64,000 bases of DNA. Source: Escherichia coli (lineage in GTDB: Bacteria > Pseudomonadota > Gammaproteobacteria > Enterobacterales > Enterobacteriaceae). The notes beneath the pieces are model-generated. The model was not told where the DNA came from and did no database searches. It worked only from the letters and a program-made list of their open reading frames with translations. The translations under genes were made by a program, and so were the position numbers. Location: NCBI RefSeq assembly GCF_044647545.1, contig NZ_CP172818.1. One strand, 5' to 3'. Positions 1 through 61,569 of the stretch are shown one piece after another. Position 1 is the stretch's first letter. Each line of letters begins with the position of its first letter.

Positions 1-116
1 AGCAATCCGATCACCAGGCCGCCAGCCAGACCGAGGACCGAGATCCACAGGGTCATTTTGGCACCTTCAATCAGAAGCGGAATGGCAGGCCAGATGGCAC
101 TCCAGTCAAACTGCAT
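1..116 (-). CDS. glnP: Glutamine ABC transporter permease GlnP, 5' end only (gene continues beyond window start)
   Basis: Reverse-strand translation from ATG at 116..114 gives [27 protein letters not shown]..., which I recognise as the GlnP N-terminus; lies just downstream of glnH in the glnHPQ operon orientation. Confidence 0.85.
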
Positions 117-254
117 ATGTTGTTCCTGTTACCGTGGTGTAAATAATCAAATTCAGGGTAATTAATGGCCCCGGAGCGGGTTTGCGCCCCTCACCCTAAT
201 CCTCTCCCCAGAGGGGAGAGGGAACTGCCAGTGCGCCTTACAGGCGTAGCGTTA

Positions 255-1016
<762 letters not shown>

Positions 1017-1039
1017 CTATCCACGGGACGATCCCCTGC

Positions 1040-1200
1040 GTGACATTCACATATATGAAAAAATCGTGCCAGTTTTGCAACTCATTGATTTATCGAGATG
1101 CGGTAAAAACGTGATGCACGATTTATAGGGCAATACCCTGAAGATGCACCATTCTGGGGCACCAAACTGGTGCGCTAAAATTGTGCACTCAACACAGTGA
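1040..1200 (-). promoter_or_regulatory. glnH upstream region: sigma54-type promoter (minus-strand TGGCACGattttTTCAT at about 1056-1072) plus NtrC-like TGCACC...GGTGCA half-site repeats at about 1144-1195
   Basis: Motifs read directly from the sequence; glnHPQ is a known NtrC/sigma54-activated operon. Exact site boundaries not verified. Confidence 0.5.
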
Positions 1201-1404
1201 TTATTTAGCGTAAAACCTGATGAAAAAACAATCTTTATGTAACGATTGTGTGATGATGTGGATACAAAAAATTTACTTAATCAGCTGGAGATAGCAGATG
1301 GATGCACTAAATAAGTGCGTTGAGGTGGGCTGCAAAACAAAACGGCCTCCTGTCAGGAAGCCGCTTTTATCGTGTACTAAAGTTCTGCACCATCAGCGAT
1401 GGAT

Positions 1405-2081
<677 letters not shown>

Positions 2082-2206
2082 TTATTTGCTCGCCAGGAAT
2101 TTTCGGAATAAATATGCTTTTGCATAATTCGATATATAAAGACGGTGTAGAGGAAAAGTAGCGAGAAAATCTGCATGGTTATGCATAACCATGCAGAAAT
2201 GTAAAT

Positions 2207-3094
2207 TTAATTTATATCTAATTCTTTTATTTTGCTCTCTTTGCGTACTGTCAGCGTAGAACCCATTGAAGCGGCGATGATAGCGCCGAGCGCCAGCAGC
2301 TGTATGGGTGTCAGTGTTTCTCCGAGGAAAATCATCCCGGAAACGGCAGCCAGCGCAGGTTCCATGCTCATTAGCGTACCAAATGTGCGTGTTGGCAAAC
2401 GGGTGAGGGCAATCATTTCCAGCGAATAAGGCAGAGCGGTCGAGAGAATAGCGACCGCCAGACCCAATGGAATAACCGACCAGTGCCAGAGTGCTTCACC
2501 AGCCTGAAGCGCTCCAATTGGCACGAAAATTAACGCTGCAATCAACGAACCAATTGCCACCGTCGCAGGGCCATGTTCCGCTCCTGCGCGTTGCCCACTT
2601 AAAATGTAAATAGCCCAACAAGCCCCGGCGCCCAGAGCCAGCGCACAGCCGGTTAAATCGACATGGGAAACGTCTTGCCCCAGCGGTAGCAGGAACCACA
2701 GACCAAGAACCGCCAGAACAACCCAGACGAAATCTACCGGGCGACGAGAAGAGAACAGCGCCACCGCCAGTGGTCCGGTGAACTCCAGCGCCACCGCAAT
2801 ACCCAGCGGTACCGTCTGAATAGAAAGATAAAAAAGATAATTCATCCCCCCCAGCGAAACGCCGTAAAACAACAGCGGTAACCGCTGCTCTTTGGCAAAG
2901 CGCAGTCGCCATGGCTTAAAGAACGCGATGAGGATCAGCGTGCCTAATGCCAGACGCAGCGCAGTGACCCCCGGTGCGCCCACCAGAGGAAAAAGTGACT
3001 TAGCTAACGAGGCTCCACTCTGAATAGACGCCATGGCAACGAGCAATATGACTATTGGTAACCAGACCGGCATTTTACGTAATGAACCAGGCAT
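2207..3094 (-). CDS. rhtA: Threonine/homoserine exporter (DMT/EamA family)
   Basis: ORF 2207..3106; the recognised RhtA N-terminus MPGSLRKMPVWLPIV begins at the ATG at 3094; 10-TM EamA-type protein. Confidence 0.9.
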   Translation of the reverse strand: MPGSLRKMPVWLPIVILLVAMASIQSGASLAKSLFPLVGAPGVTALRLALGTLILIAFFKPWRLRFAKEQRLPLLFYGVSLGGMNYLFYLSIQTVPLGIAVALEFTGPLAVALFSSRRPVDFVWVVLAVLGLWFLLPLGQDVSHVDLTGCALALGAGACWAIYILSGQRAGAEHGPATVAIGSLIAALIFVPIGALQAGEALWHWSVIPLGLAVAILSTALPYSLEMIALTRLPTRTFGTLMSMEPALAAVSGMIFLGETLTPIQLLALGAIIAASMGSTLTVRKESKIKELDIN

Positions 3095-3446
3095 CCTTTC
3101 TCCCACAAATATCTAAACCTAAGTAAAGCGTGGAGTGTACTGGATATACCCAATGCTGGTTGAGCATTTGTTGAAAAAATTTTCCCCCGTTTTGACTAAA
3201 ATGCGCCAGGATTGATGGAATCATTAGTCTGGTGATTAGGAATAATCTGGATGAATGACAGGGAAAACATGCGTAATACTTACGCAGTTCTCTGAAAAAG
3301 TGATTTAAATTTAGATGGATAGCGGTGTATGGAAACGTTCTGTTACATGAAATGGCCCGTTAGACATCACAAATCGCGAAGAGTTTCCCATTAATTTTTG
3401 ATATATTTAAAACTTAGGACTTATTTGAATCACATTTGAGGTGGTT

Positions 3447-3962
3447 ATGAAAAAAATTGCATGTCTTTCAGCACTGGCCGCAGTTCTGGCTTTCACCGCA
3501 GGTACTTCCGTAGCTGCGACTTCTACTGTAACTGGCGGTTACGCACAGAGCGACGCTCAGGGCCAAATGAACAAAATGGGCGGTTTCAACCTGAAATACC
3601 GCTATGAAGAAGACAACAGCCCGCTGGGTGTGATCGGTTCTTTCACTTACACCGAGAAAAGCCGTACTGCAAGCTCTGGTGACTACAACAAAAACCAGTA
3701 CTACGGCATCACTGCTGGTCCGGCTTACCGCATTAACGACTGGGCAAGCATCTACGGTGTAGTGGGTGTGGGTTATGGTAAATTCCAGACCACTGAATAC
3801 CCGACCTACAAACACGACACCAGCGACTACGGTTTCTCCTACGGTGCTGGTCTGCAGTTCAACCCGATGGAAAACGTTGCTCTGGACTTCTCTTACGAGC
3901 AGAGCCGTATTCGTAGCGTTGACGTAGGCACCTGGATTGCCGGTGTTGGTTACCGCTTCTAA
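3447..3962 (+). CDS. ompX: Outer membrane protein X
   Basis: 171-aa beta-barrel protein beginning MKKIACLSALAAVLAFTAGTSVA with C-terminal ...GYRF; matches OmpX as I recall it. Confidence 0.95.
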   Translation: MKKIACLSALAAVLAFTAGTSVAATSTVTGGYAQSDAQGQMNKMGGFNLKYRYEEDNSPLGVIGSFTYTEKSRTASSGDYNKNQYYGITAGPAYRINDWASIYGVVGVGYGKFQTTEYPTYKHDTSDYGFSYGAGLQFNPMENVALDFSYEQSRIRSVDVGTWIAGVGYRF

Positions 3963-3975
3963 TCACTTCGGTGAT

Positions 3976-4012
3976 ATAAAAAATCCGCCTCTCGGGGCGG
4001 ATTTTTGTTTTT
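3976..4012. terminator. Rho-independent terminator hairpin between convergent ompX and opgE
   Basis: aaaaaatccgcctctcggggcggatttttgtttt: GC stem flanked by an A-run and a T-run, so it can serve both strands. Confidence 0.7.
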
Positions 4013-5594
4013 AAGGTTTCGGGTCGAAAATATCGGTTCCGAGATGGTTGTAATCTACCTTCTGTAACTGGAAGTTGGTGATGTATATCGGCCCGGCTTT
4101 CTTCTCAGATATAAACGGGTATTTGATGTTAATTTCCTTCGCTTTAATTCCCGTCCACTGGGAGAAAAAACCTAAGAAGTCATTGGCTGAGCGGCGGGCT
4201 TTAATCACCCGATGCGCTTTATCGTCGCTCGAAATGACCATAAAAGGCACCTGGAAATTCTGCTGATATTTATCATCATGGGCAAGGTATTGCACGTCTT
4301 TGCCGCGCTCTTTAAAGGCCAGACCGTGGTCAGAAAAGTAAACCAGCGAGAAGCTGCTGCCGCTGTTGCGTAACTGATCGTACAGCTTACGCAGTAAATC
4401 GTCCGTTTGCGTCATGGTATAGAGATAGCACGACGTTTCTTTCGATTGCACAAAGGTTTCGTATTTGCCTTGTGTCCGGTCGCAGGCCTGCGGATGTGAG
4501 CCCATCAGATGTAAAACAATCAGCTGCGGTTGCGAGTGCTCTTGCGCCAGCACTTGAGCGGTCATATCCAGTAACGCTTCGTCTTTCGTGTTTTTATCTG
4601 CTTCAAAATTACCTTCTTTCAGGAAGTACACTTCATCTGCACGTTTGGCGATGCTGGCGATAGCGGTATCGTATTCGCCGATTTGCCCCTGGTTGGAAAA
4701 CCACCAGGTCTGGAAGCCCGCGCGATTTGCCAGGGTGACAAAGTTATCCTGAAACTGTGGTTTGCCATCGACAACGCGATTGAGCGTTAAGCCAAGCGAT
4801 TTCTGCGTGGAGCCACTGGCGGCAATGTAGTCAGCAAATATCAAACCGTTAACGCTGCTGGCAAACGGGGTATTGTCCCAGTGACCGCCAAAGGCACCGA
4901 GGGCATCGCGACGCGCGCTTTCACCGATCACCACCACATAGGTCTGATACTTCGGCTTAACGGCAGTGACCGTCCAGGTATCTTTCATTCCGGAAAGTTT
5001 TGCCATCCGTTCTTGCTCTTCAATCACCTCGTTATTATTGACGATGACATCCTTAGCAAAACGAAATACCGGATAGCCAGTATCTTTCAGTTTAAATACG
5101 CCGCCCCAGGCCAGGTTTTGCACGGGAGCAACAAAAAATGTCGCCACACTGAATACCAGACACAGGCTGTCGAAGGTATTCCAGCGCGCTTTTTCATTCT
5201 CTTTTTTTCGCCTGATTGCTATTACGCCGAGCGCAAAAATAAATAAGCCGACCAGGTAGCTGTACCACGGAAAAATCGTCAGGATTTCGGTCGACTCTTC
5301 CATATTGGTGGAGTGCAATGCCAGCAATGTATTGAAATTAGGCGCGCCGTAGGCCTGAGCAAAAGGGAAATAACAAGCCGCCACCAGCGAACTGACACCG
5401 ACCAGAACTTTTTGTACGCGAGGCAATGTTCGCCATAGCAAAAGCAAAATAGCCGTAAACGCAGCGGTGTAGAGCAAACTGAAGGGATAACCTAAGCCGA
5501 GGTTAATTAATAGCGACTGTAAAAAGTAGAACGCAGTCCACGGGCTAAATACCCGGCTACGGGTAACAAGCGATTCTTTGAGGGTTAAATTCAT
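4011..5594 (-). CDS. opgE: Phosphoethanolamine transferase (OPG modification), sulfatase-like membrane enzyme
   Basis: 527-aa ORF with N-terminal TM segments and a C-terminal sulfatase/alkaline-phosphatase-like domain; position between ompX and mntR matches opgE (ybiP). Confidence 0.85.
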   Translation of the reverse strand: MNLTLKESLVTRSRVFSPWTAFYFLQSLLINLGLGYPFSLLYTAAFTAILLLLWRTLPRVQKVLVGVSSLVAACYFPFAQAYGAPNFNTLLALHSTNMEESTEILTIFPWYSYLVGLFIFALGVIAIRRKKENEKARWNTFDSLCLVFSVATFFVAPVQNLAWGGVFKLKDTGYPVFRFAKDVIVNNNEVIEEQERMAKLSGMKDTWTVTAVKPKYQTYVVVIGESARRDALGAFGGHWDNTPFASSVNGLIFADYIAASGSTQKSLGLTLNRVVDGKPQFQDNFVTLANRAGFQTWWFSNQGQIGEYDTAIASIAKRADEVYFLKEGNFEADKNTKDEALLDMTAQVLAQEHSQPQLIVLHLMGSHPQACDRTQGKYETFVQSKETSCYLYTMTQTDDLLRKLYDQLRNSGSSFSLVYFSDHGLAFKERGKDVQYLAHDDKYQQNFQVPFMVISSDDKAHRVIKARRSANDFLGFFSQWTGIKAKEINIKYPFISEKKAGPIYITNFQLQKVDYNHLGTDIFDPKP

Positions 5595-5865
5595 ATGCCA
5601 CTATCGTAACAAACGCCATGTGCTTACCCTGGCGTCAAGGGTCAATACCTGCAAGAGTGCGTGGAGAGGGGAAAGGGGTCCGCATCCGCGAGCCGCAATA
5701 TACGCAGGGCTGCAAGAAGATAGAGCGAGCCGCCGTTCAGGTCAACTACTGACGAACAAATCTTTTGCGAAGGGGATTGCAAATCCGACAAAAAGTGGGG
5801 TTTTTCAGACCAAAACGCGTTGTGCCTGCATAAAAGCAGGAGTGAAGCGGCGTACCGCGACGCCG

Positions 5866-5994
5866 CTATTTATCGGAAGGTTTATCTTGCTGCGGTTTGT
5901 TGTTGACCATATCGCACAACATAGAGAGCAGCATTAACCGTACTTTAAAGGGAGAATGACTAAACACGCGCATACACCTCTTGAACTCATTCAT
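5866..5994 (-). CDS. mntS: Small protein MntS (42 aa), manganese homeostasis; within the rybA locus
   Basis: Minus-strand ATG at 5994 translates to MNEFKRCMRVFSHSPFKVRLMLLSMLCDMVNNKPQQDKPSDK with a stop at 5868..5866; below the 60-aa cut-off of the ORF track; sits upstream of and divergent from mntR as in K-12. Confidence 0.8.
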   Translation of the reverse strand: MNEFKRCMRVFSHSPFKVRLMLLSMLCDMVNNKPQQDKPSDK

Positions 5995-6179
5995 AAGACC
6001 TCCTGACTTGCTAATCCCGTCGATCCTTGAGGGATGATTGCATTACATACAGATATAGCACAGGCTATATTATATAGCTATTGCTAAAACGTTAATTTTT
6101 TGTACCTTCGCAACTCTGGTTTACAATGTGCGCACGAAATGAGAACGCTATGTATGCGTCACCATAATGAGGAAGCACA

Positions 6180-6647
6180 ATGAGTCGTCGCGCAGGTACG
6201 CCAACAGCAAAAAAAGTGACGCAGTTAGTGAACGTGGAAGAGCACGTTGAAGGGTTCCGCCAGGTCAGAGAGGCGCATCGGCGCGAGCTTATTGATGATT
6301 ACGTTGAGCTGATTTCTGACTTGATCAGGGAAGTGGGGGAAGCTCGTCAGGTAGACATGGCTGCTCGTTTGGGAGTTTCGCAACCGACGGTGGCTAAAAT
6401 GCTTAAGCGACTGGCAACCATGGGGCTGATTGAAATGATCCCCTGGCGTGGCGTGTTTTTAACGGCAGAAGGAGAGAAGCTGGCGCAGGAAAGCCGCGAG
6501 CGACATCAGATAGTCGAAAATTTCTTGTTGGTGTTGGGCGTCAGTCCGGAAATCGCCCGTCGCGACGCGGAAGGCATGGAGCACCATGTTAGTGAAGAGA
6601 CGCTCGACGCTTTTCGTTTGTTTACCCAGAAACACGGTGCCAAATGA
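6180..6647 (+). CDS. mntR: Mn(II)-responsive transcriptional regulator (DtxR family)
   Basis: 155-aa ORF with a DtxR-type HTH ([17 protein letters not shown]); matches MntR. Confidence 0.95.
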
Positions 6648-7762
6648 GCCTGCCTTTTTTAAGCACGCTGCAAGGCGATCGTTTTTTTCAGTTATTAATT
6701 CTTGTTGGCATCGGATTAAGCTTTTTCGTTCCCTTTGCACCGAAATCCTGGCCTGCTGCTATCGACTGGCACACCATCATCACCTTAAGCGGCCTGATGC
6801 TGCTGACCAAAGGTGTCGAGTTAAGCGGTTATTTTGATGTGCTGGGGCGCAAAATGGTGCGCCGTTTTGCTACGGAGCGTCGGCTGGCGATGTTTATGGT
6901 ACTGGCGGCGGCGCTGCTTTCTACCTTTCTGACCAACGATGTCGCGCTGTTTATAGTTGTTCCGCTGACTATCACGCTAAAAAGACTGTGTGAGATCCCG
7001 GTTAATCGGCTGATTATTTTTGAGGCGCTGGCAGTCAACGCTGGTTCGCTACTGACGCCAATTGGCAACCCGCAAAATATTCTTATCTGGGGACGTTCTG
7101 GTCTTTCGTTTGCCGGATTTATTGCCCAAATGGCACCGCTGGCTGGCGCAATGATGCTGACACTCCTGCTGTTGTGCTGGTGTTGTTTCCCTGGAAAGGC
7201 GCTGCAATACCATACGGGGGCGCAAACGCCGGAGTGGAAACCGCGGCTGGTGTGGAGTTGTCTGGGGCTGTATATCGTTTTTCTGACGGCGCTGGAGTTC
7301 AAACAAGAGCTGTGGGGACTGGTGATTGTGGCGGCCGGCTTTGCGCTGCTGGCACGTTGCGTGGTGCTCAGTGTGGACTGGACGCTGCTGCTGGTGTTTA
7401 TGGCGATGTTTATCGACGTCCATTTACTGACCCAGCTTCCAGCGTTGCAAGGCGTGTTGGGTAACGTGAGTCATTTATCTGAACCCGGGTTATGGTTAAC
7501 GGCAATCGGTTTATCGCAGGTGATCAGTAATGTGCCGAGCACGATTTTGCTGCTCAATTATGTGCCACCGTCTTTATTATTGGCATGGGCGGTAAACGTA
7601 GGTGGCTTTGGTTTATTACCCGGATCGCTGGCAAATTTGATTGCGTTACGGATGGCGAACGATCGCCGTATCTGGTGGCGTTTTCATCTTTATTCGATAC
7701 CGATGCTGTTGTGGGCGGCGCTGGTGGGATACGTTTTATTCGTTATGCTCCCGGCCAACTAG
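6644..7762 (+). CDS. ybiR: Putative transporter (anion permease / ArsB-NhaD-like fold)
   Basis: 372-aa polytopic membrane ORF overlapping the mntR stop (ATGA); gene order matches ybiR. Confidence 0.85.
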
Positions 7763-7774
7763 GGTCTGGCCAAA

Positions 7775-7808
7775 TAAAAAAGGCGGATGATGAGTCCGCC
7801 TCTGTTTT
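7775..7808. terminator. Rho-independent terminator hairpin between convergent ybiR and ldtB
   Basis: aaaaaaggcggatgatgagtccgcctctgtttt: GC stem with flanking A-run and T-run. Confidence 0.7.
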
Positions 7809-7820
7809 ACGTTTTGACGA

Positions 7821-8741
7821 TTAATTCAGACGAACCGGCATCCCAGAACGATTTTTGATCGCTTCATCAAGAACAACCTGGTCAACATCTGGCTGACCGG
7901 TCACTGTCTGCACGCTCTTCGTCAGGGTAATTGGCACAATTTCCTGACCTTCAAACTGGGCTTCGGTGGTAGACAGCGGATTATGGACTTCAATATAACG
8001 GCTGCCGTCTGGCTCGGTGGTCGCTTTTACCGGCTCATCAATAAACTGCACGCGAGTACCGACAGGCACTTTCTCGAACAGGAATTTAATGTCTTCGTTA
8101 CGCAGACGCACACAGCCATGACTTACACGCAGGCCGATACCGAAGTTGGCGTTGGTGCCATGGATAGCGTACAGGCGACCGATGTAGAGTGCATACAGAC
8201 CCATCGGGTTATCCGGACCTGCCGGAACGACAGCCGGAAGCGGTTCGCCCGCAGCGCGGTACTCTGCGTGCATTTTGGCGGTCGGCGTCCAGGTCGGGCC
8301 TGCTTTCTTACGCTCAACTTTGGTGGTCCAGTTGATAGGCGTGTCTTTGCCTAACTGACCAATGCCGATGGGCAGCACGATAACGGTGTTGCTGCCTTTC
8401 GGATAGTAATAGAGACGCATCTCTGCGCTGTTAATGACAATGCCTTCATGAACGGTATCCGGCAGGATCAGCTGCTGCGGAATGTTCAGTACAGTACCGC
8501 CTTTCGGCAGGAAGGTATCCACACCCGGGTTAGCTTCCATCATGTTGGAAAGACCCATCTGGTACTCGGCGGCAAAATACTCCAGCGGCTGAGTGTTACC
8601 TTCAGGAATGGTGATTACCTGATTCTGACCAACCAGGCGACTCCCGTCGGTTGGCAGAGGATAAGTTACCGCAGAGGCGGTACTGCAAAAGCCGACAACA
8701 GCGAAGGCCGCTGCGAATAATGTTTTCAATTTCATATTCAT
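7821..8741 (-). CDS. ldtB: L,D-transpeptidase (YkuD domain; anchors Lpp to peptidoglycan)
   Basis: 306-aa ORF with signal peptide; catalytic region ...SHGCVRL... is visible; matches YbiS/LdtB. Confidence 0.9.
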
Positions 8742-8959
8742 GTTAAGCGAGATTTTGTGCCTGGCAGGCCATTGGGTTGAGAATATTAGAGTATTGGAAG
8801 CGCATTATAAGTTCATTCCAGCTCACAGTGAAATCAGATGTGTACGAAATCACATTTTTTGCCTTTGGGAAGAGTGTAGACCTTAAGCGGGGGACGGGAT
8901 CTTCTTTCAGACTTATGGCATAATACGCGGTTTGTCATATCTCTTTTCAGGATACGCCT

Positions 8960-10552
8960 GTGTTAGTTTCCAGTAACGTCACCATGCAGTTCGGCAGTAA
9001 GCCGTTGTTTGAAAACATTTCCGTCAAGTTTGGCGGCGGCAACCGTTACGGCCTGATTGGCGCGAACGGTAGTGGTAAATCCACCTTTATGAAGATCCTC
9101 GGCGGCGACTTAGAGCCGACGCTGGGTAACGTTTCCCTCGATCCCAACGAGCGCATTGGTAAGCTGCGTCAGGATCAGTTTGCCTTTGAAGAGTTCACTG
9201 TGCTGGATACGGTGATCATGGGGCATAAAGAATTATGGGAAGTGAAGCAGGAGCGCGACCGCATCTATGCTTTGCCGGAAATGAGTGAGGAAGACGGCTA
9301 TAAAGTGGCCGATCTGGAAGTGAAATACGGCGAAATGGACGGTTACTCTGCGGAAGCTCGCGCCGGTGAACTGTTGCTTGGCGTGGGAATTCCAGTGGAA
9401 CAGCACTACGGCCCGATGAGTGAAGTTGCTCCTGGCTGGAAGCTGCGTGTGCTGCTGGCGCAGGCGCTGTTTGCTGATCCGGACATTCTCCTGCTCGACG
9501 AACCGACCAACAACCTCGACATCGACACCATTCGTTGGCTGGAACAGGTGCTGAACGAGCGTGACAGCACCATGATCATCATCTCGCACGACCGTCACTT
9601 CCTTAACATGGTTTGTACCCACATGGCGGATCTGGATTACGGCGAGCTGCGCGTTTATCCGGGCAACTACGATGAGTACATGACGGCGGCGACCCAGGCG
9701 CGTGAACGTCTGCTGGCTGATAACGCCAAGAAGAAGGCGCAGATTGCTGAGCTGCAATCTTTCGTTAGCCGCTTTAGCGCCAACGCCTCGAAATCTCGCC
9801 AGGCAACTTCGCGCGCGCGCCAGATTGATAAAATCAAACTGGAAGAGGTGAAAGCCTCCAGCCGTCAGAACCCGTTCATCCGTTTTGAACAGGATAAGAA
9901 ACTGTTCCGTAACGCGCTGGAAGTGGAAGGTCTGACCAAAGGGTTTGATAACGGTCCGCTGTTTAAAAATCTCAACCTGCTGCTGGAAGTCGGTGAAAAA
10001 CTGGCGGTACTGGGTACCAACGGCGTCGGTAAATCAACGCTGTTGAAAACGCTGGTGGGCGATCTGCAACCGGACAGCGGCACCGTAAAATGGTCTGAAA
10101 ACGCGCGCATTGGTTACTATGCTCAGGACCACGAATATGAGTTTGAAAATGATCTGACCGTGTTCGAATGGATGAGCCAGTGGAAGCAGGAAGGCGATGA
10201 CGAGCAGGCGGTACGCAGCATTCTCGGTCGTTTGCTGTTCAGCCAGGACGACATTAAAAAGCCAGCTAAAGTGCTTTCCGGTGGGGAAAAAGGGCGGATG
10301 CTGTTTGGTAAGTTAATGATGCAGAAGCCGAACATTCTGATCATGGACGAACCGACCAACCACCTGGATATGGAATCTATTGAGTCGCTGAACATGGCGC
10401 TGGAACTGTATCAGGGCACGCTGATCTTTGTTTCACACGACCGTGAGTTCGTAAGCTCCCTGGCGACCCGTATTCTGGAAATCACCCCGGAACGCGTGAT
10501 CGACTTTAGCGGTAATTACGAAGATTATCTGCGTAGTAAAGGGATCGAGTAA
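8960..10552 (+). CDS. ybiT: ABC-F family ATPase (two ABC cassettes, no TM domain)
   Basis: 530-aa ORF with a GTG start and two Walker A motifs ([18 protein letters not shown]) plus signature motifs; matches YbiT. Confidence 0.95.
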
Positions 10553-10559
10553 CTGTTGA

Positions 10560-11202
10560 TCTCGTTTCCCAGATCCAGCAGCTGCTGAGGTTGTCATAAA
10601 ACAGGCCGAAGCTAAACGTCATTGCGGCGGGTGATGGCTAATGGAATGTGTTGTACAGCGGGTCAGTACTCACGGCGTTGTAGCCCATCGCGTCGAGGTT
10701 ACGCATCTCGTAACGTTTACCGTTGCGTTGCAGGTCGCCGGCTTTATCTCCGAGGCCATAAAAGCGTTCATCTTTACGACGGCTCTGATAGTGCGCCACA
10801 CCGTCACCGTGGGCATTCAGCAGATAAGCGCTGGTCGGTCGGTCATTCACTAACGGCAGCCATTTCGTCTTCGTTGTTACTATAGTGCCACTCCAGCCAC
10901 AGCGGCTGGTGAACGGTGGACCAGTGACTCGGTGGCGATAACCACGGCGTTGTTGTGCTGGTTCAGGTTCATGCGGGCAGGCCAGCCGCTGGACATTTTG
11001 CCGGCCGCGCCCTTCCCGATGGCACATCCTGCTGGAGCAATGCTCCAGGTGCGATCCAGCGCCAGCTCGCCTTTGCGTTTTAACAGCACGCGGAACAGAA
11101 TTCCAGCACGTACAGACGCAATACGCCCGCCATCGACCAGCAGTTCAACGTGGTGGGCAGACTGTTTGAGGTCCAGTTTTTCAGCGTTTCGACGTTGCAC
11201 AT
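10560..11202 (-). pseudogene. Remnant of a glycoside hydrolase family 31 gene (alpha-glucosidase/alpha-xylosidase-like): 5' portion only, frameshifted and truncated at the ybiT junction
   Basis: Minus-strand fragments carry GH31 N-terminal-region signatures (...LDLKQSAHHVELLVDGGRIASV...; ...ERFYGLGDKAGDLQRNGKRYEMRNLDAMGY...), spread over at least two frames, and only about 210 codons remain of a family that is normally about 700-800 aa. Confidence 0.55.
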
Positions 11203-11207
11203 CACTC

Positions 11208-12445
11208 TCAGGCGCGTTTTGCGCGACGTTCAGCAATAAAGGTGACCAGGAAGAAAGCGCCAATCAGGTCAAAGAAGCCCATGGCGATAAACAGGGCTTA
11301 AAGCCGATTTTGTCAGCAGTAACCCCGATAATCAGGGAGAAACAGGAAACTTGCTATCGACGCGGCAGAACCGCGCATGCCGTTACAGTGGCCATCTGAC
11401 CTTTGTCGAGGATTCCACTACTAATGCGCTAAGCATGCAGGAGATGATCTGGTCAACCGAAGCCGCCTATGGAAGATAAGGACGATGGCGATATGGGTTA
11501 TCCAGAAAGGCCATCACCGCCAGCGAAACCATCAGGAATGCGCCACTGACCGATCTATGCGCAATGGAGTTCACACTGACTCAGCCCAAACAGGCGGGTG
11601 TAAAGTTTGGTCAGATAGCCGCTGGCAATACTGCCAAGATCAGCGGCGAAGGAACGGCAACCAGGCGAAAGAGTGCGATCTGCTTCAGGTCGATGCCATA
11701 GGCATCTGGACAGGTATAGCGGAACCCAGAAACTCATCACCGCCCACGCCGGTTCTGCCATAAAGGCTGGGATAGTGATACCGTAAAAGCGTTTATTTTT
11801 GCCCACGGTTTTCAGTGCGGTCAGAAAGGGTAACTTGACCGGGGAGCTTCGTTATCCTGGCGGAGCAACCAGCTTGGCTTCGCTGAAGGTCAGGATGCTT
11901 ATCCGGGTTGCGATAAAACCCACCACAGCACCACCCACAGCATCGCCAGGATGCCAGTGGCATAAATGCGCCCTGCCAGCGAATGAAGCGTGGGCAAAAT
12001 AGATAATCGGTGGGGCCAGCATGGCACCGATGGAGTCTACGTCTGCCCAGCGGCGATCGGGCGTTGCGATTTTGGAAACCATTCACCTCATAGTTTTGGG
12101 GTTTGCCGGGGTGGCCGCGGCTTCCGCACCGCCCGATAAAGAAGCGCAACAGCGCCAGATGTACCCAGTTTCCCGCCCCCGCATGCATCAGACAGGCCAG
12201 CGCCCACAGCCCCTGTGCAGATCAGAAGCCCAGTTTGAGGCCAATGACGTCAATGAGCCACCGCATAACGGTTGAAATAGGGTATAGGCGAGTTGGAAAG
12301 CACCTACAATCCAGGAATATTGTTTTGTGCAATCCCCAGGCTGCTTTTCAACTCGGCGTACACCCAGCGAATTACGTGTGATGTAGTTGACAGTAACACC
12401 GAGCAAAAAAAGGACCAGCATCCACCAACGCAGATTTTTGAACAC
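11208..12445 (-). pseudogene. Decayed MFS transporter gene (N-terminus resembles ExuT/DgoT-type anion:cation symporters), multiple frameshifts
   Basis: ORF 12188..12445 begins MFKNLRWWMLVLFLLGVTVNYITRN (MFS N-terminal TM1 pattern); a C-terminal piece ...ALFIAMGFFDLIGAFFLVTFIAERRAKRA ends at a stop at 11210..11208; the body is broken into ORFs under 135 aa in different frames. Confidence 0.5.
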
Positions 12446-12769
12446 CGGCGTGGTTTACTGGCAGTCATATCAATCGATACCCACTGATATGCACTCCACA
12501 GAATGGTATAGGGGGGCGGCAACGTCAGACGGAGTTGTCACACCACTTTTAACCTTTTGATAAATAAAGTCTTTATTGTCTGTTTTTCCATTGTTCTTGT
12601 ACTGGAAGTTGTTGTCACATTTTTACAGTAAGAGACACTAAAAGCGAAAAAGAAAGCGGGTTTTGTGCACGTTTTTCCATGCGGCCCATACATTACTGAA
12701 ATGGATTTAATGCCAGACAGAATGGGCTTTTTTTGCTCATGAAAATTCTGTCATTTCCGAATTAGAGGA

Positions 12770-13800
12770 CATCAGAAATCGGCAAAGAGCTTAAATTGCC
12801 GATATCGCCGCACGTACCGGATTATCGCCGATACGGTTTCGCGGGTGCTGCTGGCAAAGCGAATACCAGTGCACGCGCTCGCGAACAGGCGCTGGCCTGC
12901 GCGTGAGTTGGGCGCGATGGATGGCATGGCAGCAGGTCATGTTGCTGAATACAACTCATCATTTTGCGCCGCAACGCGCGTTTGACCAACGATCTGATAT
13001 CTTTTATTACCTGGTGTGATCCAGCATCAGCAAAGCGTTATCGCCCGCATGAAGTGCGGCTGCGTTACTGCGTGTTAAGGTAGTTCTACAGCTGATCCCT
13101 GGCGTGATCTGGCGGCATGAATGAAGCAGATACGCAGGCGGCGATCCTGCTGGGGATCGACGATCCGCACATCCATGATCTGGCCGCCGATCGCTAAGCC
13201 TTGCGCTGATCGACTGCTGGTGATGAACGAATGCGCCTCCCGACGATTGCGCCGGACCATCGGTTAATCGGCGTGTCTGCCGCCCGCTATCTGTTTGAAA
13301 TGGGTCACCGGGAGGTGATGAACGTTATGTGCCTGCGCTCGGCCACACTATGGAGCAGCGGTTTGCAGGGATCAAAGAATCATGGCGTCAGCATAATCTG
13401 GCCTTTCACCATGACCGTCATTTGCTGAATATCAGCAGTTTTCTCAGCGCTAAAGAAGCGGAAGAAGGTCGGAGCGCGGCCTGATGCCGCCAATGGCAAT
13501 ACGTTGCCGACGGCGTTTCTGGTCGGCGGGGATTTTTATGGCGGCGGGAACGGTAAATGCGCTACATCGTCGTGGTCTGCGCGTACCACAGGATGTCTCG
13601 GTGATGAGTATCGATGGTCTTCAATCTTGCGGCAATCGAGGATGTTCCCGACGGCTGTGACGTGCCACGCGATCAGCTAAGGGTTAAGTGGTGCAAATGT
13701 TGCAACAGCGGCTGATTCGCCGGATGTCTGCGGTGGGCTCGCTGCTGCTGCACGGACGATTAGCGGTGCGGACGCGCGGCGGTTGCCCAGGAAAAGGGAA
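12770..13800 (+). pseudogene. Decayed LacI-family transcriptional regulator gene, multiple frameshifts
   Basis: HTH-like IADIAARTGLSP continues in another frame as DTVSRVLLAK...ARELG; the C-terminal region contains ...GLRVPQDVSVMSIDG..., typical of LacI/GalR effector domains, but split across frames with stops. Confidence 0.5.
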
Positions 13801-13833
13801 CACCGCCGTGGAACGGGAAGGGCTGTACGACAA

Positions 13834-15102
13834 TCATTCCATTCCCAGCGCTCGCTTACCGTGAATGTTGAGGTCGGCAAGCGTAAAGCGTCCTTCCCAG
13901 TTTGTTTCATAGTCCTCGCGCGGGAAGTCGCCCGGCGATGCGCCTTTTTCCAGTGCGGCCTTCACCTTGTGCGCGTAGGCAAGATTTTTCTCGCACATCG
14001 GTGCCGCAGGAATGTACATCACGTTGCCCCAACCCTGTTGATTTTCAACGGGGGCAACGGAATGGATGACGTCGCAGTGCCACCAGACGGAGTCTCCGGC
14101 TTCGAGTTGTGGAATGCTGGTTAATGCCTCAATCAACAGTGGATGCCATTGCTCTGATACCGGCAACACTCTTCCGGGCGCTACGCCGCACAGTTCATCC
14201 TCCGGCACATCATCAAGCAGCGGACGTAACAGCACGTACGCCATGGCTTCAGGAATGGGCACGACGTGCAGCAGTCCCTGACCAGGCAGCATATCAGAGA
14301 GCGCTGTCCAGCCCTGGAATGTCCGAAACACGGAACATTTGGTGGTGTTGTCCACCGTGTACTCTTCAACTTCTGTACGATGTGCCGCATGCCAGGGATC
14401 ATATTGCGCCAGATTGCCATTAAAGACGTTGGCGAAAACGCGCTGATACGCTGGAAGCAGCCAGCGTTCCAGTGCCCCGGAGTCGGTATGCGCTCCGAGA
14501 CCTTTGGAGGCCGTTCCGGGCGGACGGCGGCGGATACGGTCAGGGTAGATGACGCTCACATCCGGGTTAAACCATTGCTTTCCATCACTTTCAAATGTCC
14601 ACAGACGATTGAGAAACGACTGCGCATTCGCCATTTCTTCACTCTGGCGGGCCTGCATTTGCGCCTGCGACCAGTAGATGGGGTAAATCTCGGGACGTGA
14701 AGCGCTGAGCGTCCCGAAGAAATTATCGCCGGGGCCTTTGTAGACCTCATCAAAGCGGTTGCGGTCCAGATAGTCCAGCATCGACTGATCCCAGCCTAGC
14801 GCTTGTTCGCGGGGGAAATGGCCTTTTATCACCGCACAACCGCGACGTTTAATCTGTTCGCGTTGCTCTGCAGTAACATGACCTGCTTTGATATCGGCAT
14901 AAGACAGCACCGGCCAGACTGCATCGCCCTGTGCTTTGAGTGCGTTGATTTCAGCCACTCGCGTGGCAATGTCATCGCTTAGCTGATTAAAGATCTGCTG
15001 GACGTCGCCAAGCTGCGCCCGCAGCGCGTGCTTCATCTGACGGATAGCTGCTTTGTGATCGGCAGGCAATGTGTTGCTGGTAAAAGTAGAAGCCATAACC
15101 AC
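13834..15102 (-). CDS. ybiU: DUF1479 family protein
   Basis: 422-aa intact ORF matching YbiU; the true start may be a few codons inside (MASTFTS...). Confidence 0.9.
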   Translation of the reverse strand: MVMASTFTSNTLPADHKAAIRQMKHALRAQLGDVQQIFNQLSDDIATRVAEINALKAQGDAVWPVLSYADIKAGHVTAEQREQIKRRGCAVIKGHFPREQALGWDQSMLDYLDRNRFDEVYKGPGDNFFGTLSASRPEIYPIYWSQAQMQARQSEEMANAQSFLNRLWTFESDGKQWFNPDVSVIYPDRIRRRPPGTASKGLGAHTDSGALERWLLPAYQRVFANVFNGNLAQYDPWHAAHRTEVEEYTVDNTTKCSVFRTFQGWTALSDMLPGQGLLHVVPIPEAMAYVLLRPLLDDVPEDELCGVAPGRVLPVSEQWHPLLIEALTSIPQLEAGDSVWWHCDVIHSVAPVENQQGWGNVMYIPAAPMCEKNLAYAHKVKAALEKGASPGDFPREDYETNWEGRFTLADLNIHGKRALGME

Positions 15103-20339: not shown

Positions 20340-20491
20340 CCGGACGTTCTGCATCCTCATCAATTGCTGATAACGTTGTGGAGTGCACCAAGCTTCCGCG
20401 CCTGAAATTCGCCCGAACTAGGCAGATAAGGTTACGCCGATTGGGTCTGAGAAAATTATCTGCCGCGACTTATCAGGCCTGGGGCTGGCAG

Positions 20492-31445: not shown

Positions 31446-32774
31446 ATGTCCAGAATCAATAAGTTCGTACTTACAGTCAGTCTGCTGATTTTTATCATGA
31501 TTTCAGCAGTTGCCTGCGGGATCTACACTCAAATGGTAAAGGAACGGGTGTATGGCCTGAAACAGTCCGTTATTGATACTGCTTTTGCGGTGGCAAATAT
31601 TGCTGAATATCGGCGTAGTGTGGCAATTGATCTGATCAACACGCTAAATCCTACGGAGGAACAGCTGTTGGTTGGCTTACGCACAGCTTACGCCGACTCG
31701 CTTTCACCCTCTTATTTGTACGATGTCGGTCCTTATCTGATTTCCAGTGACGAATGTATTCAGGTAAAGGAGTTCGAGAAAAATTATTGTGCAGATATTA
31801 TGCAGGTTGTGAAGTATCGACATGTCAAAAATACAGGGTTTATCTCTTTTGATGGTAAAACCTTCGTCTATTACCTCTATCCGGTAACTCACAATCGTAG
31901 TCTGATATTTTTGCTTGGTCTGGAACGTTTTTCTTTACTGTCAAAATCGCTGGCGATGGATAGCGAGAACCTGATGTTCTCCCTGTTTAAGAACGGTAAA
32001 CCGGTGACCGGTGATGAATATAACGCTAAAAACGCCATCTTCACCGTTTCGGAAGCAATGGAGCACTTCTCCTATTTGCCGACCGGATTGTACGTATTTG
32101 CGTATAAAAAAGACGTTTATTTTCAGGTATGTACATTGATTATTTTCTTTGCCGCATTGGTGGCAGTGATATCGGGTGCCAGTTGCCTCTATCTGGTACG
32201 CAGAGTGATTAATCGTGGTATTGTGGAGAAAGAAGCCATTATTAATAACCATTTTGAACGCGTCCTGGATGGCGGGCTTTTCTTTTCGGCTGCCGATGTC
32301 AAAAAACTCTACAGTATGTATAACTCGGCATTCCTGGACGATCTGACCAAAGCAATGGGCAGAAAATCCTTTGATGAAGATTTAAAAGCCCTGCCGGAAA
32401 AAGGCGGCTATTTGTGCCTGTTTGACGTCGATAAATTCAAAAACATTAACGACACCTTCGGTCATTTGCTGGGCGATGAAGTGTTGATGAAAGTGGTGAA
32501 AATCCTTAAATCACAGATCCCGGTAGATAAAGGTAAAGTCTACCGCTTCGGCGGTGACGAATTTGCGGTGATTTATACTGGCGGCACGCTGGAAGAGTTG
32601 CTATCGATTCTAAAAGAAATCGTTCATTTCCAGGTGGGAAGCATTAATTTAAGTACCAGTATCGGTGTAGCGCATTCAAATGAATGTCCTACCGTCGAAC
32701 GCTTGAAAATGCTGGCGGATGAGCGGCTGTATAAGAGTAAGAAAAACGGCAGGGCACAGATTAGCTGGCAGTAA
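31446..32774 (+). CDS. dgcI: Membrane-anchored diguanylate cyclase (GGDEF domain)
   Basis: 442-aa ORF with a GGDEF active-site motif ([12 protein letters not shown]); matches YliF/DgcI. Confidence 0.9.
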
Positions 32775-32779
32775 TTAGA

Positions 32780-33700
32780 ATATTATACCCCTTAATCAAG
32801 GGTACTAATGAATTGGTAAATCATTTCAAACATTTTACTTTGCAAAAACTTCCGGCCCTTTTATTCCAATGTATTCAAAAAACGCAATGCCGGCCCCTTC
32901 TTTTTTTTTCTTTTCCTCCCCTTTTCTAAAACTTTTTTTTTTAAATTCCCTTTTGTTCCAAAACCGGGTGGATGCCCCGTCCGGCGGGCCTTTTTCTCTT
33001 CTCCCCCCTTTGTTTTTGTTTTGCTTATGGGCCGCACTCTCGGGTTTGTGACTTAAGGGGAAGGACAAACTTCCAAACAACAAACAGACCCACATTTCTT
33101 TCCTTTCTTTTCAATTTAATTTTTTTTTTTTTCTCCCAAAAAAAAAACAAATTCAAAAAAAATCTTTTTTTATTGCTAAAGGCCAGAAATGCATTTGCCA
33201 TTTTTTTGTAGGCCGCCAGTTCATCATCTTCGATTTCTTTGGTTCCTTTACTACTTAGACCACTCTTGGACCAACCATCATAAAAAAACACATGATTTGC
33301 TGATTTAAAAAAAATAATTTTTTTGCCTCCCCCTCTTTCTTTTTGAGGGGGAAATTTTTTTTAAGAACACCCCAACCTAAATCACCCTCCCATATGCCCT
33401 CCATCACTTCTCCAGCGCAAGCCATAAAAATTTTATATTAAAAACCAAGTTTTTTTTGTTTTGCGGAATCTTTCCCTTATACACACCCATACACCCATCT
33501 TTTGTTATTGTTTATATTATAAAAATTATTCTTTTTTAAAAAAAATTGAAAAAAAAAATTTATTTTGGAAAAAAAAAGGAGGGTTGCCCGAAGGTTTTTT
33601 TTTTTTTGATTTATGGGGGGGATTTTTGGGAAGGAAAGGAAAGGGGGGAGGGAAGGAGAGGAAGAAAAAAAAAAAATTAATTTAGATTTCTGCCTTAAGA
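32780..33700. other. Low-complexity, homopolymer-rich non-coding tract between convergent dgcI and rimO; origin unclear (possible assembly artefact or foreign/synthetic insert)
   Basis: Runs of at least 10 T, at least 10 A and 7 G, plus GA-rich and CT-rich blocks (e.g. ggaaggaaaggaaaggggggagggaaggagagg); only short Lys/Phe/Gly-rich ORFs; unlike the surrounding E. coli sequence. Confidence 0.6.
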
Positions 33701-61226: not shown

Positions 61227-61305
61227 AATCATTTCCTTATTAGCTTGTTCTGAAAAATGGCGTTATACGATAATAGATGATATCCTTTCAATACCATCTT
61301 AAAAG

Positions 61306-61569
61306 CACAAAACAATACTTTATATTATAATAATAAAAATATATACTAATAATTAAAAAAATTAACATATACAACACATAATAAAAAAAAATAATAATTT
61401 AATATAAAAAAATAATTAAAAATTCTAAAAAACTTTAAATAATTTTAATAACAATCAAAATTATTAAATATTAAATCAAAAAAAAAAATTTTTAAAATAA
61501 AAAAAAAACAAATAAAAAAAATAATAATAAAACTATTAAATTATAAAAAAAAACAAATAATATTAAAAA
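61306..61569. other. Extreme A/T tract with no G on the + strand for about 264 bp, between ybjP and ybjQ; origin unclear
   Basis: Composition read directly: from about 61306 to 61569 the + strand carries no G and only sparse C; A/T-only repeats such as aataat, attaaa and A8-10 runs. Confidence 0.6.

Follow-up and report, generated by a model that had tools for sequence, protein, structure and literature searches.

A frame-shattered sugar-utilisation island between ybiT and ybiU of an Escherichia coli chromosome is best explained as a sequencing or assembly error

The segment separating ybiT from ybiU in this Escherichia coli sequence is very probably an intact accessory island whose letters were corrupted by sequencing or assembly error, and not one that decayed in evolution. 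The frame-shattered regulator, transporter and hydrolase genes at 10553-13833 are a real observation. Because the same island is intact in closely related E. coli, these apparently decayed genes reflect a data-quality problem and not a biological relic; with the damage being technical, the frameshifts and stops are features of the file and not of the bacterium, and the truncation of the GH31 hydrolase is probably a feature of the file as well. Throughout the window, by which we mean the whole 64,000-nucleotide stretch analysed, the conserved backbone is essentially error-free, whereas the stretches that an ST648-type genome has in excess of a K-12-type one are garbled, shortened or replaced by junk.

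Results

The segment as written

The gap between ybiT and ybiU measures 3,281 bp and contains no open reading frame above 155 aa, in agreement with an earlier note that had described, from the letters alone, about 3.3 kb with no ORF over about 155 aa. That note had also taken the segment to be extra relative to K-12, which is borne out, although the K-12-type spacer is 240 bp and not the roughly 100 bp given there. The gene identities proposed (LacI-family regulator, MFS transporter, GH31 glycosidase) and their layout, a regulator divergent from a transporter-hydrolase pair, agree with the annotation of intact copies (Table 1). Five of the six peptide motifs quoted were located exactly, at 10680-10769(-), 11211-11240(-), 12795-12830(+), 12830-12859(+) and 13574-13618(+); the sixth (MFKNLRWW...) corresponds to a GTG-started ORF at 12188-12445(-). 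The peptide quoted as the N-terminus of the MFS transporter does not mark the true start, which is found 16 codons further upstream, at 12488. The hydrolase does stop at the ybiT boundary, with position 10554 corresponding to codon ~220, and is 3'-truncated in the sequence as written.

Querying the window by tblastn with the intact proteins of a relative recovered residues 1-227 of 787 for GH31, 431 of 433 for MFS and 361 of 367 for LacI, with the matches of each protein scattered across all three frames of its own strand. The GH31 gene therefore lacks both an uninterrupted ORF and a complete catalytic (beta/alpha)8 domain, only residues 1-227 being represented. A single ORF of ~430 aa for the transporter is likewise missing (its longest ORF is 131 aa, and reading it through would need switching among three frames), and the HTH and effector-domain motifs of the LacI/GalR regulator lie in different frames, so that HTH and C-terminal sugar-binding domain are not joined in one ORF. 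As the earlier note had concluded, the sequence as written is unable to encode functional proteins.

The ybiT gene ends in GAG-TAA, as in K-12-type genomes, compared to GAC-GGT-TAA in the ST648 type. Beyond it, the true island would continue with 1,892 bp that are absent here, comprising the ybiT-GH31 spacer and the 3' two-thirds of GH31. On the other side, the last 31 bases of the LacI gene overlap the 3' end of ybiU, and the final error falls at 13840. The YbiU C-terminus reads ...ALGME* in the window, versus ...ALGIDS* in the ST648 type and ...ALGMDV* in the K-12 type. Damage thus reaches the last codon(s) of both ybiT and ybiU.

Table 1. Coordinates of the features discussed, in window positions. 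Substitutions and indel events for the GH31, MFS and LacI genes and the intergenic region were counted against the intact ST648 island.
Feature	Position	Strand	Remarks
ybiT (ABC-F ATPase)	8960..10552	+	100% identical to ST648-type allele up to base 10548
Left junction	10549..10553		ST648 alignment breaks exactly at K-12/ST648 homology breakpoint
GH31 glycoside hydrolase 5' fragment, corrupted	10554..11193	-	Codons 1 to about 220 of 787; 26 substitutions, 15 indel events
MFS (anion:cation symporter / D-galactonate-type) transporter, full-length, corrupted	11208..12488	-	43 substitutions, 33 indel events
MFS-LacI divergent intergenic (promoter/operator) region, corrupted	12489..12777		12 substitutions, 10 indel events
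LacI-family regulator, corrupted	12778..13864	+	45 substitutions, 38 indel events
ybiU (DUF1479)	13834..15102 (13834..15096 as the 420-aa variant)	-	100% identical to ST648 allele except last codons
Second patch: REP-like element, fsa-moeB spacer	20396..20461		99 bp extra in ST648 vs K-12
Third patch: HTH + RelE/ParE toxin-antitoxin island, dgcI-rimO	32774..33687		996 bp extra in ST648 vs K-12
Fourth patch: ybjP-ybjQ spacer	61248..61565		Stands in place of 2.55-kb ST648 insert

The island is intact in other E. coli

A search for an intact homologous cassette and its distribution, proposed in the earlier note, found the island in 577 of 5,426 complete genomes (about 11%). Of the 30 matches listed, 29 had an intact copy, as did all four relatives inspected; FDAARGOS_497 and other ST648-type genomes carry the same island undamaged. 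None of the 5,426 genomes matched the window copy at more than 92.2% identity. The intact unit encodes a GH31 protein of 787 aa (WP_000854254.1), an MFS transporter of 433 aa (WP_000077533.1) and a LacI-family regulator of 367 aa (WP_001571153.1). The island is a lineage-specific accessory sugar-utilisation unit, ordinarily intact in ST648-type and other E. coli. Of the suggestion that the segment might be a strain-specific island remnant, the lineage-specific accessory nature stands; the unit is intact elsewhere and is not a remnant. A literature search for a GH31 island at ybiT-ybiU returned nothing relevant.

Rates and spectrum of the damage

Outside the patches, the flanks differ from FDAARGOS_497 by one substitution and one one-base indel over 40,712 bp, whereas the 3.3-kb island shows 127 substitutions and 98 indel events against the ST648 copy, with 1.9 kb absent (Fisher tests: substitutions p ~1e-142, indels p ~1e-109). 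Per base, substitutions amount to 3.8%, deletions to 3.0% and insertions to 1.2%, or ~8% in total. The flanks have therefore not diverged in proportion to the island, although those of a genuine pseudogene relic would have done so: if 20% of sites were neutral, ~309 flank substitutions would be expected against the one observed (P ~1e-132). The damaged copy also belongs to the same allele that genomes with identical flanks carry in intact form: of 58 sites that distinguish the alleles, 56 show the ST648 state. Its changed columns, roughly 300 in number, are all private to the window copy; just two sites are common to the second natural island allele, and allele mixing was dismissed on this ground.

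The spectrum is equally atypical of natural divergence. Gap and substitution columns stand at 116:183 in the window copy, compared to 2:66 between natural alleles (p ~1e-10), an approximately 20-fold excess in the ratio. The transition/transversion ratio is 1.4, versus 2.7 for natural alleles, and no third-codon-position excess was found among the island substitutions. Pyrimidine transitions on the plus strand outnumber purine transitions by 60:15 (4:1, p ~2e-7), while natural divergence is symmetric (24:24), and the asymmetry keeps its direction in both gene orientations (34:8 in the minus-strand genes, 21:6 in the plus-strand gene). With 98 indel events to 127 substitutions, the spectrum is neither substitution-dominated nor strand-symmetric, whereas that of a relic would be both, and the error profile of the island matches raw long-read error, not mutation. 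The earlier note was right to flag the indel density as abnormal for an E. coli pseudogene.

Several other sources of damage were considered and rejected. Transcription-linked or deaminase-type targeted mutagenesis fails because the strand bias is not flipped by gene orientation and the 98 indel events would be unaccounted for. Homopolymer-driven indels are not the main cause, as 1-bp deletions are just mildly enriched in runs, which is not the pattern of simple homopolymer error. Low-complexity or neighbour-copy corruption was also discarded for the island, which matches the true sequence in complexity, GC content and homopolymer content, and in which substituted bases are not copies of adjacent ones; low-complexity collapse is confined to the toxin-antitoxin and ybjP-ybjQ patches.

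The damage is clustered. One run of 212 bp within the island is free of errors, and the toxin-antitoxin patch retains a perfect core of ~190 bp; both exceed the longest clean run (146 bp) obtained in 2,000 simulations of a uniform 8% error model. A single raw read throughout is therefore too simple an account, which has to be supplemented by polishing of some parts or by read quality that varied.

Corruption elsewhere in the window appears to follow a reference

The corrupted patches correspond one-to-one to the segments that ST648 has in addition to a K-12-type genome, 4 of 4 in the window. In the fsa-moeB patch there is one substitution, and small deletions occur at 18 places, at 15 of which a single G/C base is lost. 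The toxin-antitoxin patch has 78% identity to the true sequence and is collapsed to low-complexity runs. The ybjP-ybjQ patch begins with a piece of the K-12-type empty-site spacer (61248-61293), after which come 272 bp of junk with 64% A and a GC content of 7.7%. In addition, the loss of one T from a homopolymer (T6->T5) breaks dps in two.

Alignment to a K-12-type genome, also advised in the earlier note, placed the edges of the damage at K-12/ST648 homology breakpoints: at 6 of 8 patch edges the damage lies 0-11 bp from the breakpoint, and the remaining two (where the island adjoins ybiT, and where the ybjP-ybjQ patch starts on its left) are alignment breaks lying on breakpoints. A 15-mer of the empty-site spacer that has no match in ST648 is present in the window, denoting a K-12-type junction state. 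Two observations speak against a K-12-type backbone: the 240-bp ybiT-ybiU spacer of that type is not kept, and the window rightly lacks two segments specific to K-12 (153 bp and 65 bp). Single-base indels between ST648 and K-12 were too scarce to bear on the matter. Together, the fate of all four ST648-extra segments and the K-12-type bases at the junctions indicate that the location of errors is set by presence or absence in a reference, and the three further patches and the dps frameshift provide comparable corruption at unrelated segments.

The anomaly belongs to a single record

The YbiU variant in the window (420 aa) is identical to WP_400165218.1, whose sole occurrence is on one NCBI contig of 4,499,902 bp. 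Among ~15 billion proteins, this YbiU and a garbled 129-aa ORF were each found on one contig. Neither the 5,426 complete genomes nor the protein look-up revealed lesions common to related isolates; the anomaly is unique to one record with clean relatives.

The record was of sufficient quality to receive RefSeq protein accessions, an observation that speaks against an artefact.

Discussion

How the corruption may have arisen

Most probably, the chromosome was rebuilt on a reference or backbone without these insertions, with the shared sequence supplied by accurate small-variant or consensus calls and the insertions filled from long reads that had not been polished, in effect from a single read of one strand. 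Such a route may have resembled the pasting of a structural-variant caller's raw INS sequence into a reference, and long or AT-rich insertions would have been truncated or degenerated along the way. Sniffles reports as the sequence of an insertion that of one arbitrarily chosen read, and insertions called from ONT data had a mean identity to truth of 91.6% (bioRxiv 10.1101/2021.05.27.445886).

Alternative explanations

A mixed account, which we consider unlikely, holds that a real 1.9-kb deletion fused the truncated GH31 gene to the end of ybiT, leaving the island truly dead, and that sequencing error was laid on top. Accessory-gene deletions are frequent in E. coli, and the missing 1,892 bp form one uninterrupted block that begins precisely where ybiT ends. 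Yet about 89% of the ybjP-ybjQ insert is lost from this assembly too and every other patch is shortened, so that the truncation looks like a systematic technical effect. The left edge moreover coincides with a K-12/ST648 breakpoint bearing a K-12-type ybiT stop, which a backbone effect explains better than a random deletion, and the truncation occurs in none of the 577 island-bearing complete genomes.

It appears improbable that the sequence is synthetic, with a simulator or generative sequence model having rewritten or altered the segments outside the core. A neural sequence model whose output degenerates could look like the low-complexity toxin-antitoxin patch and the junk of 7.7% GC, the junctions revert to the majority (K-12-type) state, and severity follows how rare the true segment is and its GC content. 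However, a neural basecaller or polisher given poor signal could yield the same junk, the island itself has a raw-read-like profile with single-strand asymmetry and undiminished complexity, and NCBI lists proteins exactly matching the corrupted sequence, encoded by an E. coli contig of 4.5 Mb and with a RefSeq WP accession.

A genuine relic, in which an island inactivated long ago decayed neutrally through substitutions, small indels and a 1.9-kb deletion, is very hard to sustain. It would account for genes that are each broken many times, a truncated hydrolase, and preserved composition and complexity, but it is contradicted by the near-identical flanks, the intact copies of the same allele, the indel excess, a strand asymmetry that does not follow gene orientation, and the confinement of the damage to one assembly, in which three unrelated loci are equally or worse corrupted, A/T junk included. 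The first option offered in the earlier note, an old relic, is thereby refuted, and the evidence favours its third, error-laden sequence.

Import of a diverged and already decayed copy by homologous recombination, whether the donor was a different Escherichia lineage or a species related to it, deserves almost no credence: the ~92% identity falls within the range of inter-species divergence in Enterobacteriaceae, but the ST648 state prevails at the informative sites, at most two changes are common to the second natural allele, error-free stretches are identical to ST648, the endpoints lie exactly at the island edges with no divergence in the flanks, and an imported orthologue would differ mostly by synonymous substitutions and not by 98 indel events. 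That the sequence is true to the cell, with a process in an ST648-derived strain selectively scrambling or eroding acquired non-core DNA and sparing the core, is scarcely conceivable; the signature proposed for it comprises dense small indels, one-strand-biased transitions and collapse to A/T runs.

Implications

Read as a corrupted rendering of an intact island, the segment has no biological significance, the island being already known as an ordinarily intact accessory sugar-utilisation unit. Its importance lies in the record: in a public E. coli chromosome with RefSeq-accessioned proteins, accessory segments appear systematically garbled or truncated, in contrast to a perfect core. Anyone using that record to count pseudogenes, to call pan-genome presence/absence or to infer genome reduction would obtain wrong results, and singleton variants such as WP_400165218.1 are artefacts spreading into protein databases. 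A reusable flag for such records combines clean flanks around private, indel-rich, strand-asymmetric damage with damage edges at reference homology breakpoints and singleton status.

Comparison with known systems

The window copy shares site, gene order, orientation and allele with the intact ST648-type island (e.g. NZ_CP033850.1, NZ_CP008697.1), and its flanks are 100% identical; it differs in lacking 1,892 bp and in 225 private differences that break every frame. The intact GH31 protein aligns over residues ~121-754 to the catalytic region of characterised GH31 alpha-glucosidases (E-values 1e-79 to 1e-31), a set comprising ER alpha-glucosidase II (PDB 5f0e), a bacterial GH31 (PDB 6jr6), archaeal MalA, and E. 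coli YicI and YihQ. Against these enzymes, the window retains only residues 1-227, mostly N-terminal to the catalytic barrel. Assignment of a specific substrate to the intact GH31/MFS pair was abandoned because every NCBIfam equivalog scored far below its cut-off (MalA, 305 bits vs 800), and the label is accordingly held at 'alpha-glucosidase-like hydrolase plus anionic-sugar-type MFS'.

In host-restricted Enterobacteriaceae such as Shigella and Salmonella Typhi, carbohydrate-utilisation operons are broken by frameshifts, stops and deletions. Real pseudogenes of this kind carry few lesions per gene, mainly substitutions, which are common to related isolates and accompanied by proportionally diverged flanks; none of these four properties holds for the window copy.

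A further likeness is to raw long-read INS calls, such as those of Sniffles before Iris refinement. The clustered errors and long perfect runs, suggestive of some polishing, set the window apart from plain calls of this type, and its junk patch and 1.9-kb loss require extra assumptions. What the window has in common with raw calls is a sequence ~8% off truth in which small indels dominate and deletions exceed insertions; placed in a reference consensus, such calls also share with it single-strand errors, breakpoints at reference homology edges, reference-type junction bases and accurate surrounding sequence.

Broken sugar-utilisation genes between ybiT and ybiU

As written in the window, the ybiT-ybiU gap spans 3,281 bp and holds no ORF longer than 155 aa; GC across the segment is an unremarkable 52-59%, AT-richer only at the divergent spacer near 12.4-12.8 kb. 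The earlier note had read this segment as a decayed cassette of a LacI-type regulator, an MFS transporter and a GH31 glycosidase. As a description of the text this holds: the same three genes are annotated in intact islands, and all six quoted peptide motifs are present. Using three intact proteins from one relative as tblastn queries, we recovered residues 1-227 of 787 for GH31, 431 of 433 residues for MFS and 361 of 367 for LacI, each split over all three frames of its strand. Two details needed correction: the real start codon of the MFS gene is found 16 codons upstream of the N-terminal peptide quoted, and the K-12-type ybiT-ybiU spacer, given in the note as little more than 100 bp, measures 240 bp.

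We searched the segment against the RefSeq 'complete genome' set of E. coli (5,426 genomes, with the window's own record outside that set). It matched 577 genomes, always on the chromosome and full-length in 576, with a maximum identity of 92.2%. At the same site the island-bearing genomes carry a regulator-transporter-GH31 cassette, as a 5.2-kb island that was intact in 29 of the 30 hits listed and in all four relatives inspected. Its GH31 protein is alpha-glucosidase-like (best solved relatives, ER alpha-glucosidase II and bacterial GH31 6jr6) and scored far below the cut-off of all NCBIfam equivalogs, and its MFS protein is of the D-galactonate/anion:cation-symporter type. The intact island thus joins a regulator to a transporter-hydrolase unit, whose substrate may be an alpha-glycoside, possibly an anionic one. 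A literature search on the ybiT-ybiU GH31 island found no paper.

The LacI-family gene runs tail-to-tail into ybiU, sharing 34 bp with it in intact genomes and 31 bases (13834-13864) in the shortened copy of the window. Because the island boundary falls within the last codons of both ybiT and ybiU, the protein C-termini differ between island-bearing and island-free E. coli (YbiT, ...GIDG vs ...GIE; YbiU, ...GIDS vs ...GMDV).

Genes at the ybiT-ybiU site, proteins of the intact island and further corrupted patches
Feature	Window position	Strand	Size or state
ybiT	8960-10552	+	
ybiU	13834-15102	-	
GH31 protein, intact island		-	787 aa
MFS transporter, intact island		-	433 aa
LacI-family regulator, intact island		divergent	367 aa; 3' end overlaps ybiU 3' end
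REP-like element, fsa-moeB spacer	20396-20461		27 bases lost; 18 small deletion events, 15 of single G/C bases
HTH + RelE/ParE toxin-antitoxin island, between dgcI and rimO	32774-33687		78% identical to true sequence
ybjP-ybjQ spacer patch	61248-61565		K-12-type empty-site spacer piece, then 272 bp junk

Clean flanks around a damaged island

The surrounding sequence is nearly perfect. Against FDAARGOS_497, an ST648-type genome with the intact island, window 1-10548 shows 0 mismatches and 1 gap, and many ST648-type genomes match ybiU-ybiV at 100% identity. Over 40,712 bp of window 1-44984, corrupted patches excluded, we counted 1 substitution and 1 one-base deletion. Within window 10554-13840, alignment to the intact allele shows 127 substitutions plus 62 deletion and 36 insertion events, and the window lacks 1,892 bp of the island (island vs flanks, Fisher tests: p ~1e-142 for substitutions, ~1e-109 for indels). 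With just 20% of flank sites changing at the rate seen in the island, ~309 flank substitutions would be expected; 1 was observed.

In a three-way alignment, the window copy carries the ST648 allele at 56 of the 58 sites separating the two natural alleles; its ~300 changed columns are all private. Judged by these sites together with the identical flanks, the window copy is the same recent allele that is found intact beside identical flanks in other genomes. Such allele sharing excludes recombinational import of the island copy, and a true relic is excluded by flank identity together with private, indel-rich and strand-biased damage. The old decayed cassette is thus wrong as a biological reading.

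Damage sites coincide with DNA absent from a K-12-type genome

When the whole window was compared with FDAARGOS_497 and with CP008697.1, a colinear ST648 genome, three further corrupted patches emerged (see table); searches against complete genomes gave no good match for any of them. The toxin-antitoxin patch has collapsed into homopolymer-like runs (same-base dinucleotides 0.51 vs 0.31 and GC 0.34 vs 0.415 in the true sequence) and keeps a perfect core of ~190 bp. The ybjP-ybjQ junk is 7.7% GC and 64% A; in ST648 genomes this site is occupied by an AT-rich insert of 2.55 kb that includes a pentapeptide-repeat pseudogene. Severity tracks the GC of the true segment: 54% GC left 92% identity, 41.5% left 78%, and at 33% the segment was destroyed.

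Over this region, alignment of ST648 to a K-12-type genome gave exactly four ST648-extra segments (5,236, 99, 996 and 2,548 bp), corresponding one-to-one to the four patches. At six of eight patch edges the distance between the start or stop of the damage and the homology breakpoint is 0-11 bp; at the other two (the island's ybiT side and the left of the ybjP-ybjQ patch) the alignment breaks directly on the breakpoint. The window's ybiT ends GAG-TAA as in K-12-type genomes, not GAC-GGT-TAA, its dgcI stop is the K-12-type TAA, and it contains the empty-site spacer 15-mer GATATCCTTTCAATA, absent from ST648 genomes. Where K-12 has 153 bp and 65 bp that the ST648 lineage lacks, the window follows ST648. 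It is also clean across the empty site (~44984) of a P2-like prophage at rcdA-ybjL, matching other ST648 genomes perfectly; the prophage, present in FDAARGOS_497 (L006 28450-48501) and absent from most other ST648-type genomes, is an ordinary strain polymorphism. Damage that depends on another strain's missing DNA is impossible for in-cell mutation and expected of reference-anchored reconstruction.

Smaller differences were also noted. Window 29603 reads A6, as in FDAARGOS_497, where CP008697.1 has A7 and its pdeI (L007 32048-34001) is annotated as frameshifted, probably a homopolymer error of that reference. The artJ-artM spacer differs from CP008697.1 by two intergenic 1-bp indels (A6->A7 and a C deletion, window 57516 and 57614), the C deletion adjoining the 65-bp K-12-specific segment. 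In NZ_CP168949.1 (strain IH5; L005 1-10978), a partial island match lies within a mosaic of truncated genes drawn from unrelated loci, including bla, aadA5, phage capsid, casA and acfD; this stretch of the assembly appears to be chimeric or of low quality.

The damage resembles read error

In the three-way alignment, 66 substitutions and 2 gap columns separate the natural alleles, to which the window copy adds 183 columns with substitutions and 116 with gaps (odds ratio 21, p ~1e-10). Substitutions at codon positions 1/2/3 (GH31 15/4/7, MFS 18/7/18, LacI 14/12/19) show no third-position excess, and ts/tv is 1.4 for the window damage vs 2.7 for the natural alleles. Pyrimidine transitions outnumber purine transitions on the + strand by 60:15 (p ~2e-7), a direction that holds for the genes on the minus strand (34:8) and for the one on the plus strand (21:6) alike; between natural alleles the two classes are equal (24:24). 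A one-strand bias without regard to transcription direction is expected from errors of a single sequenced strand, and by this profile the damage looks like read error rather than mutation. The conserved core gene dps (~1405-1950, -) is likewise split into two ORFs, by a T6->T5 deletion at window 1828 (T6 in both ST648 references) that is probably a long-read consensus error and points to such error in the record.

Origin of the corrupted sequence

Together, the read-error-like profile and the four patches at K-12 breakpoints support error-laden sequence, one of the alternatives listed in the earlier note; the decayed-cassette segment is not a real biological feature. That a real 1.9-kb deletion underlies a layer of sequencing error we consider improbable, at about one chance in ten. 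Deliberate in silico generation of the non-core segments is also unlikely: the junk resembles degenerate neural output, but window-encoded proteins are on record at NCBI. By exact-sequence look-up, the window-specific YbiU (ending ...ALGME; WP_400165218.1) and a garbled 129-aa ORF (10641-11027, -) each occur on one NCBI contig of 4,499,902 bp, which shows the window to be a genuine public record. The source chromosome, at 4.50 Mb, is ~0.5 Mb short of four ST648-type comparators (5.06-5.23 Mb), a deficit that would fit systematic loss of accessory DNA.

Because the damage sites are set by what a K-12-type genome lacks, we favor reference-anchored reconstruction. The chromosome would have been built on a backbone without the strain's insertions; sequence common to the backbone would have been called accurately at depth, and insertions filled from unpolished long-read sequence, with long inserts shortened and AT-rich ones degenerated. 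Since a 212-bp perfect run in the island and the perfect core of the toxin-antitoxin patch are longer than a uniform error model permits, some polishing or uneven read quality has to be assumed. What the analysis usefully leaves behind is a data-quality flag for the source assembly, together with a diagnostic that can be applied again. Per base, the island carries 3.8% substitutions, 3.0% deleted and 1.2% inserted; for ONT, a read error of ~8% has been reported, and Sniffles, which copies an insertion sequence from one arbitrary read, gave ONT insertion calls with a mean identity to truth of 91.6% (Jasmine/Iris preprint, bioRxiv 10.1101/2021.05.27.445886).
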